DNA from: a virus
Taxonomy: Duplodnaviria; Heunggongvirae; Uroviricota; Caudoviricetes
DNA: 8,386 nucleotides
IMG/VR virus record: IMGVR_UViG_2541047931_000004
Location: 1 to 8,386 of that record
Direction: 5' to 3' (one strand)
In this document: positions 1,331 to 8,386 of the stretch, piece after piece
How the letters are laid out: every line of letters starts with the position of its first letter
Numbering within the stretch: position 1 is the first letter of the stretch
Position numbers and translations under genes: made by a program
Notes under the pieces: model-generated
The model's input: only the letters and a program-made list of their open reading frames with translations
The model's database searches: none
Told to the model about the DNA's origin: nothing

Positions 1331-1345
1331 GCTTTTTTATACTAA
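1331..1345. other. attL core (overlap region O), lambda-type
   Basis: Exact 15-bp GCTTTTTTATACTAA, 47 bp upstream of the ybhC start and about 75 bp from the int stop. Identical to the lambda att core as I recall it. Confidence 0.9.
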
Positions 1346-1425
1346 GTTGGCATTATAAAAAAGCATTGCTTATCAATTTGTTGCAACGAGCAGGTCACTA
1401 TCAGTCAAAATAAAATCATTATTTG
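1346..1425. promoter_or_regulatory. P' arm of attL: IHF H' site and three Int arm-type sites (P'1 to P'3)
   Basis: TATCAATTTGTTG at 1371..1383 fits the IHF consensus WATCAA-N4-TTR. AGGTCACTAT (1392..1401), CAGTCAAAAT (1402..1411) and AAAATCATTA (1412..1421) fit the Int arm-type consensus C/AAGTCACTAT. Matches the lambda P' arm from memory. Confidence 0.75.
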
Positions 1426-2489
1426 ATTTCAATTTTGTCCCACTCCCTGCCTCTGTCATCACGATACTGTGATGCCATGGTGTCCGACTTATGCCCGAGA
1501 AGATGTTGAGCAAATTTATCGCTTATCTGCTTCTCATAGAGTCTTGCAGACAAACTGCGCAACTCGTGAAAGGTTGGCGGATCTCCTTCGAAGGAGAGAC
1601 CTGATGCTTTTCGTGCGCGCATAAAATACCTTGATACTGTGCCGGATGAAAGCGGTTCGCGACGAGTAGATGCAATTATGGTTTCTCCGCCAAGAATCTC
1701 TTTGCATTTATCAAGTGTTTCCTTCATTGATATTCCGAGAGCATCAACATGCAATGCTGTTGGGATGGCAATTTTTACGCCTGTTTTGCTTTGCTCGACA
1801 TAAAGATATCCATCTACGATATCAGACCACTTCATTTCGCATAAATCACCAACTCGCTGCCCGGTAACAACAGCCAGTTCCATTGCAAGTCTTAACCAAC
1901 ATGGTGATGATTCTGCTGCTTGATAAATTTTCAGGTATTCGTCAGCCGTAAGCCTTGATCTCCTTACCTCTGATTTTGCTGCGCGAGTGGCAGCGACCGG
2001 GTTTGTTGTTATATGGCCTTCAGCTATTGCCTCTCGGAATGCATCGCTCAGTGTTGATCTGATTAACTTGGCTGACGCCGCCTTGCCCTCGTCTATGTAT
2101 CCATTGAGCATTGCCGCAATTTCTTTTGTGGTGATGTCTTCAAGTGGAGCATCAGGAAGACTCCTCCTTATTGCTTTAATTTTGCTCATGTAATTTATGA
2201 GTGTCTTCTGCTTGATTCCTCTGTTGGCGAGAATTTTTTCGTAGCGATCAAGCCATGAATGTAACGTAACAGAATTATCACTGTTGATTCTCGCCGTCAG
2301 AGGCTTGTGTTTGTGTCCTGAAAATAACTCAATGTTGGCCTGTATAGCTTCAGTGATTGCTATCCTCCTGTCTCTGCCTAATCCGAACTCTTTACCCGTC
2401 CTTGGGTCCCTGTAGCAGTAATATCCATTGTTTCTTATATAAAGGTTAGGGGGTAAATCCCGGCGCTCATGACTTCGCCTTCTTCCCAT
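1419..2489 (-). CDS. int: Tyrosine site-specific integrase, lambda Int (356 aa)
   Basis: 356-aa ORF starting MGRRRSHERRDLPPNLYIRNNGYYCYRDPRTGKEF, recognised as near-identical to lambda Int. Its first 23 nt overlap the end of xis, as in lambda. Confidence 0.97.
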   Translation of the reverse strand: MGRRRSHERRDLPPNLYIRNNGYYCYRDPRTGKEFGLGRDRRIAITEAIQANIELFSGHKHKPLTARINSDNSVTLHSWLDRYEKILANRGIKQKTLINYMSKIKAIRRSLPDAPLEDITTKEIAAMLNGYIDEGKAASAKLIRSTLSDAFREAIAEGHITTNPVAATRAAKSEVRRSRLTADEYLKIYQAAESSPCWLRLAMELAVVTGQRVGDLCEMKWSDIVDGYLYVEQSKTGVKIAIPTALHVDALGISMKETLDKCKEILGGETIIASTRREPLSSGTVSRYFMRARKASGLSFEGDPPTFHELRSLSARLYEKQISDKFAQHLLGHKSDTMASQYRDDRGREWDKIEIK

Positions 2490-2685
2490 TTCTGATCCTC
2501 TTCAAAAGGCTACCTGTTACTGGTCGATTTAAGTCAATCTTTACCGCTGATTCGTGGAACAGATACTCTCTTCCATCCTTAACCGGAGGAGGGAATATCC
2601 TGCACTCGCGTACCCATCGACGAACTGTTTCAAGGCTTCTTGGGCGTCGCTGGCGTGCGTTCCACTCCTGAAGTGTCAAGTACAT
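2467..2685 (-). CDS. xis: Excisionase Xis (72 aa)
   Basis: MYLTLQEWNARQRRPRSLETVRRWVRECRIFPPPVKDGREYLFHESAVKIDLNRPVTGSLLKRIRNGKKAKS, recognised as lambda Xis. Start taken at the internal ATG (2685) of the 85-aa six-frame ORF. Confidence 0.95.
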   Translation of the reverse strand: MYLTLQEWNARQRRPRSLETVRRWVRECRIFPPPVKDGREYLFHESAVKIDLNRPVTGSLLKRIRNGKKAKS

Positions 2686-2697
2686 CGCAAAGTCTCC

Positions 2698-2711
2698 GCA
2701 ATTACACGCAA
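2698..2711 (-). promoter_or_regulatory. cII-type activator site TTGC-N6-TTGC of the int promoter pI (-35 region)
   Basis: Minus strand reads TTGCGTGTAATTGC, ending 13 nt upstream of the xis ATG. This is the arrangement of lambda pI, whose transcript starts inside xis and so expresses int alone (established lambda knowledge). Confidence 0.6.
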
Positions 2712-2733
2712 GAAAAAGCCGCATTGATGCGGC
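2711..2733 (-). terminator. Putative intrinsic terminator just upstream of pI/xis
   Basis: On the minus strand, a 7-bp stem GCCGCAT/ATGCGGC with a 2-nt loop is followed by TTTTTCTT. Function not demonstrated. Confidence 0.4.
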
Positions 2734-6022: not shown

Positions 6023-6319
6023 TCAGTCATTACTGATAGCGCCATAGCGTGAGCGGTAATTACGCAGGCGCGGGTCGATATATTCAGGGAAGTGGGTATA
6101 TGTGGCTTTGCGGAATGGTCGGATTGATGTTTCGTTTGTTCGGTCCTTCTCATTTTTTAACGCGAGTTGTATATCGCGTCGGTACATCCGTTCTGCTTTT
6201 GTTTCTGGTGGCAGATCGATAAACGTGTCGAAAATGTTTTTGATATTTTCCAGCACCTCCGCCTTGGAGCTACCGGAGCAATTGCGCGGGGCATCCGCAC
6301 CATACAGAGGCGCTGGCAT
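6023..6319 (-). CDS. Hypothetical phage protein (98 aa)
   Basis: ORF begins 23 nt after the SSB-like gene stop, with a weak AGG RBS. Charged, lysine- and arginine-rich. No family recognised. Confidence 0.55.
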
Positions 6320-6342: not shown

Positions 6343-6930
6343 TCAGAAAGCAGGGTAATCGTTCTGGCTGTAACCATAATCATCTGCATGATTCTGGCTT
6401 ACGTTTTTAGAGCGATTGTCTTTATCTTTGAGATTGGCAACCATGTTGGCGATAGTTTCTGGTTGCTTGCCTTCTGCCTTTTCTTTAAGGGTTTGACCTG
6501 TTTGTGCAATAAACGGGATGCGTATTTCCATCTGGTAGTTGTCTGCGCCAGTCTTTTTGTTTGTAGTTAATACTTTCTGGAGCACTAACCCGATTTTCTT
6601 TCCATGAAATTCAGGTGCAACAAATTTACTGGCGGAAACCATATGCTGCGTTAATTGTCCAATCCCGGCACACCCCATCATGGCGTGAACGACATTTGCG
6701 CCAAATTTGTTTTCCGTTCCGTCATTTTTCTGAACACAGACGCTAAGATATTGGATTTTACGTCCGTCGTCGGATTCTCCAGAAAACTCAATAAATTTGG
6801 CTCCTTTTTCTGATTGCTTTAGTTCTGCTTCAGTAATGGTAATGATATGGGCGCCAGTTTCGTTAATAAAACCACCTTGCCCTGCGGTCAGTGCTGCTTC
6901 TTCGTTATAAGTAAAAATCACGTTGCTCAT
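6343..6930 (-). CDS. Putative phage ssDNA-binding-like partner of Sak4 (195 aa)
   Basis: ATGA overlap with the Sak4-like gene stop; AAGGAA RBS. C-terminal tail DDYGYSQNDYPAF is acidic/aromatic and ends in Phe, like the C-terminal tips of E. coli SSB and T7 gp2.5. No canonical SSB motifs recognised; function inferred from tail and context. Confidence 0.6.
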   Translation of the reverse strand: MSNVIFTYNEEAALTAGQGGFINETGAHIITITEAELKQSEKGAKFIEFSGESDDGRKIQYLSVCVQKNDGTENKFGANVVHAMMGCAGIGQLTQHMVSASKFVAPEFHGKKIGLVLQKVLTTNKKTGADNYQMEIRIPFIAQTGQTLKEKAEGKQPETIANMVANLKDKDNRSKNVSQNHADDYGYSQNDYPAF

Positions 6931-7607
6931 GCGGCGTTTTCCTTAATTTGATGAACATTATTGATGCCGTAGTAATCACAAACAGTGGCATCGACGAAAG
7001 AGAGATCGTTATCAATCTCATTGGAATCAAACATTCCCATTGGGGATTTGACAGTGTCTGCACCGTTGTTTTTCGTGGTGAAAAAGAACTGGTCATCGCG
7101 GGTAAGAGTGCGAAGAACTATAGTAAACATGCCTTCGACAGTGATTTTCTCGTCCAGCATTTTGCCGATAGTTTTCATTTTCACGCGCCCCATAGGGGTT
7201 TCTTCGGTATGTGCAAGAAAATAGACTCTCAGGTCATCAGGTGCATCCTGTGCAGCCTTAATCACCTCCCATGCGTGGCGGCCTATCTCAGTAAATTTAT
7301 CAAACGATTTTTCTTCTGAGCGGCGCATAAACTCATTGCTCATCACATACTGGAAGTCATCAACAATAACGATTCTTTTTCCGTATTCGTGAGCACGCTT
7401 AATTACAGCAACTATTACGTCCCATTTGTCAGTGGTAACTACGGTTCCTTTTTTTGCTCTGGCATCCCATGCAAGCCAGTCTTTTGATTTAAATGGTAGC
7501 GGCTTGCCTATTGGTTTTATAAGTATTGCTTCCTCTGGATTGATATTTCTCATGCTGGTTGATTTTCCGGTGCCAGATTCACCGAGTATTAATGTCGCAG
7601 TTCCCAT
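6927..7607 (-). CDS. Sak4-like RecA-fold recombination ATPase (AAA_24-type core, 226 aa)
   Basis: Walker A GESGTGKST at residues 9..17 and Walker B-like RIVIVDD. Size and position match Sak4-type single-strand annealing proteins of phages. GAGG RBS 6 nt upstream. Confidence 0.8.
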   Translation of the reverse strand: MGTATLILGESGTGKSTSMRNINPEEAILIKPIGKPLPFKSKDWLAWDARAKKGTVVTTDKWDVIVAVIKRAHEYGKRIVIVDDFQYVMSNEFMRRSEEKSFDKFTEIGRHAWEVIKAAQDAPDDLRVYFLAHTEETPMGRVKMKTIGKMLDEKITVEGMFTIVLRTLTRDDQFFFTTKNNGADTVKSPMGMFDSNEIDNDLSFVDATVCDYYGINNVHQIKENAA

Positions 7608-7615
7608 AATTTGCC

Positions 7616-7804
7616 TCAGAATGGTAATTCGGATGGGCAGGAAAGAAATTCGCGCTCATTCATGCGCTCTCTTTGCGCCTGCCATAAACAAAGTTGTTTC
7701 TTTGATTTATCTCCCGCTTTACGCCAGTAACGAGCCTCAGCAATGTGATATTCTCTTTTTAATCGACTTAACTCTGGAGTTTTCGCCAGTTCTACCGGAA
7801 TCAT
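7616..7804 (-). CDS. Hypothetical phage protein (62 aa) occupying the position of lambda gam
   Basis: Start at the second ATG (MIPVELAKTPELSRLKREYHIAEARYWRK) with GGAGG 5 nt upstream; ATGA overlap with the kil-like stop. Not similar to lambda Gam as I recall it. Confidence 0.55.
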   Translation of the reverse strand: MIPVELAKTPELSRLKREYHIAEARYWRKAGDKSKKQLCLWQAQRERMNEREFLSCPSELPF

Positions 7805-7914
7805 TTTGACCTCCATTTTCTGTAGGCTTCTACGGCTTCACGAAACATCTTTTCATCGCCAATAAAAGTGGCGATAGTGAATTTAGTCTGGATAGCCATA
7901 AGTGTTTTATCCAT
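7801..7914 (-). CDS. kil: Kil-like host-killing protein (37 aa), C-terminus diverged from lambda
   Basis: MDKTLMAIQTKFTIATFIGDEKMFREAVEAYRKWRSK. The first 27 or so residues match lambda Kil (MDQTLMAIQTKFTIATFIGDEKMFREAV) from memory. AGGAG RBS inside the cIII 3' end; overlaps cIII by 8 nt. Confidence 0.6.
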   Translation of the reverse strand: MDKTLMAIQTKFTIATFIGDEKMFREAVEAYRKWRSK

Positions 7915-8047
7915 TTTTGGGAACTCCTGGCTGATTAAGTATGTCGATAAGGCGTTTCCATCCATCACGTAATTTACGTGTGATTCGTTCAAGTAAAGAT
8001 TCGGAAGGGCAGCCAGCAACAGGCCACCCTGCAATGGCATATTGCAT
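7907..8047 (-). CDS. cIII: CIII, FtsH-inhibitor regulator of lysogeny (46 aa, C-terminally shorter than the 54-aa lambda CIII)
   Basis: MQYAIAGWPVAGCPSESLLERITRKLRDGWKRLIDILNQPGVPKNG matches lambda CIII from memory, including the core helix ESLLERITRKLRDGWKRLIDIL. AAGGAG 6 nt upstream of the ATG. Confidence 0.85.
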   Translation of the reverse strand: MQYAIAGWPVAGCPSESLLERITRKLRDGWKRLIDILNQPGVPKNG

Positions 8048-8110
8048 GGTGTGCTCCTTATTTATACATAACGAAAAACGCCTCGAGTGAAGCGTTATTG
8101 GTATGCATAT

Positions 8111-8134
8111 AAAAAGGCCCTCACACTGGAGGGC
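8111..8134 (-). terminator. Putative intrinsic terminator upstream of cIII
   Basis: On the minus strand, stem GCCCTC / loop CAGTGT / GAGGGC followed by CTTTTTAT. Position resembles the lambda tL region before cIII (recalled, not verified). Confidence 0.5.
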
Positions 8135-8227
8135 AAAGAAGATTTCCAATAATCAGAACAAGTCGGCTCCTGTTTAGTTACGAGCGACATTGCTCACATA
8201 GCAGACTCGTAAATCTGCTATAGGCGC

Positions 8228-8386
8228 TTATTCGCATCGCATGACAACATCAAATTTTTCGAGATTACTTTGTCGCAACAATCCTTCTTCTACGCGGTCA
8301 GCTTTTCTATAATTATCAAATTCGAAATGTTTAATTACTTCTTTTGTTTCTCGCTCTATAACTTCAACGATGTATTTCTTATTCAT
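8228..8386 (-). CDS. Small AT-rich hypothetical ORF (52 aa); ATG is the last 3 nt of the window, so RBS and true start are not visible
   Basis: Hand translation: MNKKYIVEVIERETKEVIKHFEFDNYRKADRVEEGLLRQSNLEKFDVVMRCE, stop TAA at 8228..8230. Local AT content is clearly higher than the rest of the window. Could extend beyond the window. Confidence 0.35.
   Translation of the reverse strand: MNKKYIVEVIERETKEVIKHFEFDNYRKADRVEEGLLRQSNLEKFDVVMRCE

Follow-up and report, generated by a model that had tools for sequence, protein, structure and literature searches.

The cIII gene in the window, the whole 8,386-nt stretch of DNA analysed here, ends in a TAA codon that gives a CIII of 46 residues and, through the same base, a Lys at position 3 of the overlapping Kil. 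We found that the 46-residue CIII with its linked Kil Lys-3 is a common natural allele of lambda-like prophages, real but ordinary. Taking all lines of evidence together, the locus is likely an ordinary and functional cIII-kil pair of the HK620/HK629 type, in which FtsH inhibition is probably retained and the TAA stop is probably ancestral. The sequence facts on which the original prediction was built stand, as does its suggestion that function may be retained, while its interpretation of them as a noteworthy change does not, because the allele is widespread and already annotated; nor does the direction of change that it assumed, because diverged outgroups carry TAA.

The variable base and its setting in the prophage

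On the minus strand (8047..7907) the window cIII reads ATG CAA TAT ... GTT CCC AAA AAT GGA TAA, which translates to MQYAIAGWPVAGCPSESLLERITRKLRDGWKRLIDILNQPGVPKNG, 46 aa. The window was compared with segment 32700-33700 of lambda NC_001416 by pairwise alignment. In NC_001416 (annotated cIII, 33299-33463; annotated kil, 33187-33330), cIII ends CCA AAG AAT GGA TCA AAC ACT TAT GGC TAT CCA GAC TAA, and CIII is 54 aa long with the C-terminus ...PKNGSNTYGYPD. This is the ending given for lambda in the original prediction (54 aa, AAT GGA TCA ...), and the possibility raised there that the lambda reference itself has TAA at this site falls away, as it has TCA. Position 7908 is A in the window and C in lambda (minus strand), and the same base is the first of kil codon 3, AAA (Lys) in the window and CAA (Gln) in lambda. 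The alignment thus bears out the proposed C/A difference with its double consequence, a CIII of 46 instead of 54 residues and a Q3K substitution in Kil. Residues 1-46 of CIII are identical in amino acids between the window and lambda, and the five further nucleotide differences within cIII are all synonymous.

The kil ATG (7914..7912) is embedded in cIII, the stop lies at 7801, and the overlap with the 3′ end of cIII amounts to 8 nt. A point absent from the original prediction is that the window Kil, 37 aa ending ...EAYRKWRSK*, diverges past Trp-34 from the 47-aa Kil of lambda; judged from the sequence, this divergence marks a mosaic junction. The same 114-nt kil is annotated in HK620 and JEP4. 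Also absent from the original prediction is the content of the region 3′ of kil, where a gene for an hkaM-like small "recombinase"-family protein (7816..7616, minus) and one for a Sak4-like ssDNA-annealing ATPase (7607..6927, minus) stand in place of lambda gam/bet/exo, in a gene order common to HK620, HK629 and JEP4. The mosaic junction falls in the 3′ end of kil, at 7801-7816, and the start of the next gene (ATG 7816 or ATG 7804) overlaps the kil stop. In some IMG/VR loci the length of the lambda-type Kil itself varies, with forms of 47, 50 or 54 aa (...SIHYPPSLFS).

The features located in the window are collected in Table 1. The gene for CIII was found in the leftward early operon, past tL2-type terminators and overlapping kil, a layout that equals the HK620 annotation; the two terminator-like hairpins sit where HK620 annotates tL2A and tL2B. 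Reading across the window, ybhC, the att core, integrase, excisionase, early genes and kil/cIII follow one another in order, with several small genes of no assigned function between excisionase and Abc2. By this order the window represents the leftward early (PL) operon, together with the attL-proximal part, of a lambdoid prophage that occupies attB-lambda of an E. coli chromosome. The window spans the host-prophage junction and the site used is attB-lambda, although the early-left genes are of the HK620/HK629 type. It is also mosaic as a whole, with the best phage record covering at most 52% of it and the best complete genome at most 78%. At its right edge is a 52-aa ORF (8228-8386, minus; MNKKYIVEVIERETKEV...) with a full-length match to PHROG 6949, function unassigned; in HK620 this place, upstream of the tL2-like terminators, is taken by other genes.

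Table 1. Positions of genes, signals and sequence elements in the window
Feature	Position	Strand	Description
Pectinesterase-domain ORF	1-1284	minus	Matches E. coli ybhC (host)
Lambda att core	1331-1345		GCTTTTTTATACTAA; sequence match
Tyrosine integrase	1419-2489		356 aa
Excisionase	2467-2724		
Anti-RecBCD protein Abc2	6023-6319		
SSB	6343-6930		
Downstream module of this kil type	6927..7816	minus	PHROGs phrog_1723, phrog_2872
kil CDS	7801..7914	minus	37 aa, MDKTLMAIQTKFTIATFIGDEKMFREAVEAYRKWRSK; HK620/HK629 type
Untranslated "ghost" of lambda CIII tail	7883..7906	minus	AAC ACT TAT GGC TAT CCA GAC TAA = NTYGYPD + stop in cIII frame
cIII CDS	7907..8047	minus	46 codons + TAA stop; direct reading, alignment with lambda NC_001416
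cIII stop TAA	7907..7909	minus	Middle base 7908 is the C/A polymorphism; alignment, allele-specific censuses
AGGAG Shine-Dalgarno-like motif	7924..7928	minus	9 nt 5′ of kil ATG, within cIII CDS; both alleles
cIII 5′ translational control RNA	8002..8060	minus	Rfam RF01804 Lambda_thermo, 88.5 bits (gathering 50), model 1-59 of 59; spans cIII start
Two intrinsic-terminator-like hairpins	8134..8117 + 8096..8077 (8077..8134)	minus	Consensus scan; 5′ of cIII

Distribution and annotation of the TAA allele

The original prediction had left room for a sequencing error and had proposed a survey of whether the shorter allele recurs. We conducted an allele census with 34-mer megablast queries, ATGGAT[A/C]AAACACTTATGGCTATCCAGACTAAAT, in which every 28-base seed word includes the variable base, making the matches allele-specific. 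TAA was found in 76 phage records (HK620, HK629, JEP4, TL-2011a and many Stx2a and Stx1a phages) and TCA in 134 (lambda, 933W, VT2-Sakai, BP-4795, Min27 and others). Among 5426 complete E. coli genomes, 220 carry TAA, in 248 places, and 946 carry TCA, in 1112 places. A pattern scan of IMG/VR gave at least 30 TAA loci and at least 89 TCA loci among the matches listed. Depending on the collection (phage records, E. coli genomes or the IMG/VR matches listed), TAA accounts for 18-36% of lambda-type cIII-kil junctions.

The shorter allele does recur, and the same recurrence disposes of a sequencing error. We give practically no credence to the wider explanation that the TAA is either a sequencing or assembly error or the mark of a decaying pseudogene in a defective prophage. 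The allele is present in the plaque-forming temperate phages HK620, HK629 and JEP4 as well as across the census, so that it is neither a singleton nor confined to defective elements; the RNA element upstream of cIII, the start codon and the core are all intact; and PGAP sets no pseudogene flag.

The short CIII was already known from the databases. In RefSeq, the HK620 entry gives cIII a length of 141 nt and remarks on it: [quoted passage not shown]. The JEP4 record annotates the same 141-nt cIII together with kil, and RefSeq/PGAP treats the 46-aa product WP_001198858.1 as intact, under the name "protease FtsH-inhibitory lysogeny factor CIII". Given the HK620 note, WP_001198858.1 and the wide recurrence, the allele is not new, and a 46-aa CIII should not be flagged as truncated by annotation pipelines or readers. 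NCBIfam returned no match for the short or the long CIII, nor for Kil; the PGAP product names must therefore stem from another type of rule, and this has no bearing on family membership. A 79-codon ORF in the kil frame starts inside cIII (MPLQGGLLLAALPNLYLNES...MDKTLMAIQ...; window 7801-8040, minus). It is annotated as "Kil" in HK629 and as a hypothetical protein in TL-2011a, and cIII is annotated in neither record; this ORF probably reflects an error of annotation, through which the short cIII of both records is hidden.

We also considered the company that each allele keeps. TAA is usually accompanied by a Kil of 37 aa and the Sak4-type module, TCA usually by a Kil of 47 aa and gam. Discordant haplotypes were nevertheless found: in a first IMG/VR sample, the matches listed include at least three TAA loci with a lambda-type long Kil and at least three TCA loci with the 37-aa Kil, one complete genome has TAA beside gam, and 11 of the best 80 IMG/VR loci ranked by closeness to the window Kil carry TCA, in a 37-aa-Kil context. 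The same Kil-alignment search recovered no further diverged lineages among these best 80 loci. As the association of TAA and TCA with kil type and module is not absolute, the pattern points to an old polymorphism that has been shuffled by recombination over the ~100 nt separating the site from the mosaic junction.

Several observations on other genomes arose from these searches. Among GTDB species representatives, the lambda-type junction turned up in Shewanella canadensis, two Pseudomonas sp., Neobacillus, Oceanobacillus, Kitasatospora, Chromatium, a Segatella copri MAG and others. All 18 of 18 matches carry TCA, and several lie on contigs of ~48.4-48.5 kb or on tiny contigs with coverage near 1; in these non-enteric assemblies the matches look like lambda DNA contamination rather than prophages, and they add no information to the census. 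In many Stx2a-converting phages the match to a 381-nt query (window 7780-8160) is split in two and extends over 781 nt, which implies an insertion of ~400 bp in or beside their cIII-kil region. Public protein collections contain in-frame cIII-kil fusions, such as a 72-aa product MQYAIAGWPVAGCPSESLLERITQKMDQTLMAIQ..., and frameshifted cIII products of 80 aa and 52 aa that run into the third frame, indicating deletions or frameshifts in some prophage copies.

Probable ancestral state of the stop codon

The original prediction held that CIII had been shortened by a base change, a wording that takes the 54-aa CIII of lambda to be ancestral. According to that account, a C-to-A nonsense change truncated the protein in this lineage, made the Kil Q3K substitution and may or may not have left CIII fully active. 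It can draw on the presence of TCA in lambda, 933W and VT2-Sakai and on its status as the majority allele, and also on the bases past the window stop, which still read NTYGYPD-stop as in lambda. These bases, however, are kil codons 3-11 in the other frame, and the second TAA (7885..7883) arises from the kil Thr-10 and Lys-11 codons (ACT AAA), so that the overlapping kil accounts for their conservation. Using fixed search patterns, we found that the variation within the 24-nt tail (four sites) alters the protein in the cIII frame, whereas in the kil frame it is silent or conservative, a count that weakly suggests constraint in the kil frame.

Diverged homologues provide a view of the site outside the lambda type. 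We collected them by tblastn with lambda CIII and inspected nine. The CIII of phage Huey, 73% identical, ends ...VPTNG, encoded AAT GGA TAA at the end, and those of Salmonella ST160 and S.Kent 1-2-1 end ...VPCNG, also with AAT GGA TAA, followed by a Kil beginning MDKSLMAIQSKF.... In P22, SF3 and Oslo, CIII ends ...VP(S/R)HD(Y/H)(C/Y)AC and overlaps the unrelated P22-type kil; in HK75 and Sf6 it is 41-43 aa long and divergent past GWKR; and in a Yersinia phage it stops at ...QRGEP with an ATGA overlap with the next gene. The second TAA formed by kil ACT AAA is present in the Huey and Salmonella types as well. In a second IMG/VR scan, in which the variable base was left free and the Huey/Salmonella-type wobble base was required, 49 loci had TAA and one had TCA. 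All 34 of 34 Salmonella ST64T/ST160-type loci had AAT GGA TAA and a 37-aa Kil beginning MDK, and TAA was found in 15 of the 16 other loci (E. coli types, mostly Huey-like). Together with phage Huey, these loci share the stop, which is therefore not derived relative to the outgroups. The Salmonella type is 73% identical to the window in nucleotides over 194 nt around the site, with several differences within 15 nt, and at such divergence the stop is unlikely to have been transferred recently.

We computed a neighbour-joining tree from 59 unique haplotypes with the variable site masked. Both the outgroup and the basal E. coli grades carry TAA, and TCA falls mainly within a single derived clade, apart from a few discordant tips; this is a simple tree of a 195-nt region in heavily recombining genomes, rooted by assumption on the Salmonella type. 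The SNTYGYPD tail is confined to lambda-type sequences among the protein-database matches listed, which fall into discrete C-terminal classes. That search of a large protein database listed 62 clusters from 90 candidates, the main clusters evidently being absent, and is used here for C-terminal variety and not for frequencies. No other CIII class with an SNTYGYPD-like tail was seen among these matches or the nine diverged homologues.

With the 54-aa form as ancestor, the same nonsense change would have had to originate independently, or spread, in lineages separated by at least six differences within 15 nt of the site. That ancestry is disfavoured by the TAA of the diverged outgroups (the Salmonella and Huey types) and by the derived position of TCA, and we regard it as unlikely. 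Instead, these comparisons indicate that TAA/Lys-3 is probably the ancestral state and lambda TCA/Gln-3 a loss of the stop, with the haplotypes discordant in both directions and the majority status of TCA in E. coli weighing against this polarity. Under the stop-loss reading, ribosomes that no longer meet the stop would go on in the cIII frame through kil codons 3-11 to the next TAA, and lambda's eight extra CIII residues are probably just these codons, a dispensable SNTYGYPD tail added to the protein. The lambda reference would then not be the archetype of its family, its last eight CIII residues appearing to be an accidental read-through of kil codons.

Predicted function and comparison with known phages

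The core helix of CIII had been predicted to be intact, and we found it so: residues 1-46 equal those of lambda, and the Pfam model PF02061 Lambda_CIII is wholly covered (106.1 bits, cutoff 25.7; residues 2-43 matching profile positions 1-42 of 42). Residues 14-37 are reported to be essential and sufficient for activity in the statement of Kobiler et al. (2007, PMC1838920) that cites Kornitzer (1991), and this 24-residue amphipathic-helix region is the same in the window CIII as in lambda. Among natural homologues the length of CIII lies anywhere between 41 and 55 aa, and the tail past ...QPGVP varies with the overlapping downstream gene (protein matches listed and the nine homologues). The short allele is found both in temperate phages that have been isolated and in many resident Stx prophages, which implies that the allele does not prevent lysogeny. 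Our paper searches found no published assay of the 46-aa CIII. On the strength of the Pfam coverage, the identical 14-37 segment, the 41-55-aa homologues and the temperate carriers, we infer that the 46-aa CIII retains FtsH inhibition, a conclusion that is well supported. We propose that the protein, keeping the family core 2-43, the amphipathic helix 14-37 and the 5′ regulatory RNA, would still protect CII and favour lysogeny.

The window Kil likewise matches its family over the whole profile (Pfam PF06301 Lambda_Kil, 76.8 bits, cutoff 27.6; residues 2-32 against positions 1-31 of 31). The 37-aa HK629 Kil was described by Naha, Cameron and Margolin (2025, PMC11762379), who reported that HK629 Kil′, a His-tagged form made up of residues 6-37, stops division in a ZipA-dependent manner and breaks up Z rings. 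They also reported that lambda Kil can do without its first 5 or its last 11 residues, and drew attention to the RSK/RSSK motif as important. Using criteria taken from that paper (a helix-turn-helix core with a Gly-19/Asp-20 turn, and an RSK/RSSK C-terminal motif), we identified the turn and the motif in the window sequence, as FIGDEK and KWRSK. The window Kil differs from HK629 Kil at a single residue, Val-28 in place of Ile. The 37-aa form would thus be an active natural variant, a view that for the window peptide is drawn from its likeness to HK629 Kil′. Position 3 appears to lie outside the required core, the first five residues being dispensable: the HK629 construct without residues 1-5 is active, which does not imply that Lys and Gln are equivalent in the full-length peptide. 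[quoted passage not shown]

A different account of the base would place its importance in kil rather than in cIII. In the TAA allele the cIII stop lies 2 nt past the kil ATG (ATGGATAA), and in the TCA allele ribosomes translating cIII run ~30 nt further, across the kil start. TAA might therefore favour termination-reinitiation, avoid occlusion of the kil start and tune the Kil:CIII ratio, and the A-rich codon 3 could possibly contribute too. In its fuller form, the polymorphism would be non-neutral, with lambda having lost the stop, the stop-to-kil-start spacing (2 vs ~30 nt) setting the amount of Kil per cIII translation event, and the alleles being maintained as alternative settings. Besides the stop geometry itself, which is read directly from the sequence, this account is in keeping with the tight start-stop overlaps between cIII and the next gene that are the rule in relatives (ATGA in the Yersinia phage, ATGGATAA in the Huey and ST160 types) and with the persistence of both alleles at appreciable frequency in both downstream contexts. 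However, in either allele kil is preceded at 9 nt by an AGGAG of its own, for which a role in ribosome binding is plausible. When 98 nt around the kil start were folded in silico, the two alleles gave the same predicted structure and the same minimum free energy, -19.5 kcal/mol, which lends no support to an effect of the SNP on RNA structure. Neutral drift and hitch-hiking on the flanking modules explain the distribution equally well. Selection through kil thus appears quite improbable, both for the base itself and for the maintenance of two settings; if true, the two alleles would be alternative balances between promotion of lysogeny and the block of host division.

Among known systems, the closest to the window are HK620, HK629 and JEP4 (NP_112048.1, NP_112047.1; WP_001198858.1), with the same AAT GGA TAA, 46-aa CIII and RSK-ending 37-aa Kil; they also share with it the hkaM-like, Sak4-like and SSB genes and the tL2-type terminators. 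Differences are small: CIII residue 36 is Ile in the window and Val in HK620 and HK629, Kil residue 28 is Val in the window and Ile in those two phages, and HK620 matches the window at 95.9% identity across the 194 nt of the junction region. Lambda CIII (NP_040620.1) and Kil (NP_040619.1) share with the window the gene overlap, the cIII 5′ RNA and the position in the PL operon, and the helix-turn-helix core of Kil is ~84% identical. Lambda differs from the window in Ser-47 (TCA) and what follows it, eight residues SNTYGYPD in all, and in its gam/bet/exo genes downstream; its Kil has Gln-3 and ends in the tail ...KKWILILKLRSSKSIH. The Salmonella ST64T/ST160/L type resembles the window in having TAA two bases past the kil ATG, a 37-aa Kil starting MDK and a CIII ending ...VPCNG, but differs in its Erf-type recombination genes downstream and, in some members, in another N-terminal segment of CIII (MTFAIAGGAVMG...). 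P22 C3 and the CIII of HK022, HK75 and Sf6 have in common with the window the core ESLL(E/D)RITRKLR.GWKR and the annotated role. Their tails differ, ...VPSHDYCAC in the 52-aa P22 C3, which overlaps the unrelated P22-type kil, and ...GWKRVEVLLCAMK in the 41-43-aa proteins of HK022, HK75 and Sf6, and these differences indicate that CIII is unconserved past about residue 43 (residue 33 in the HK022 type).
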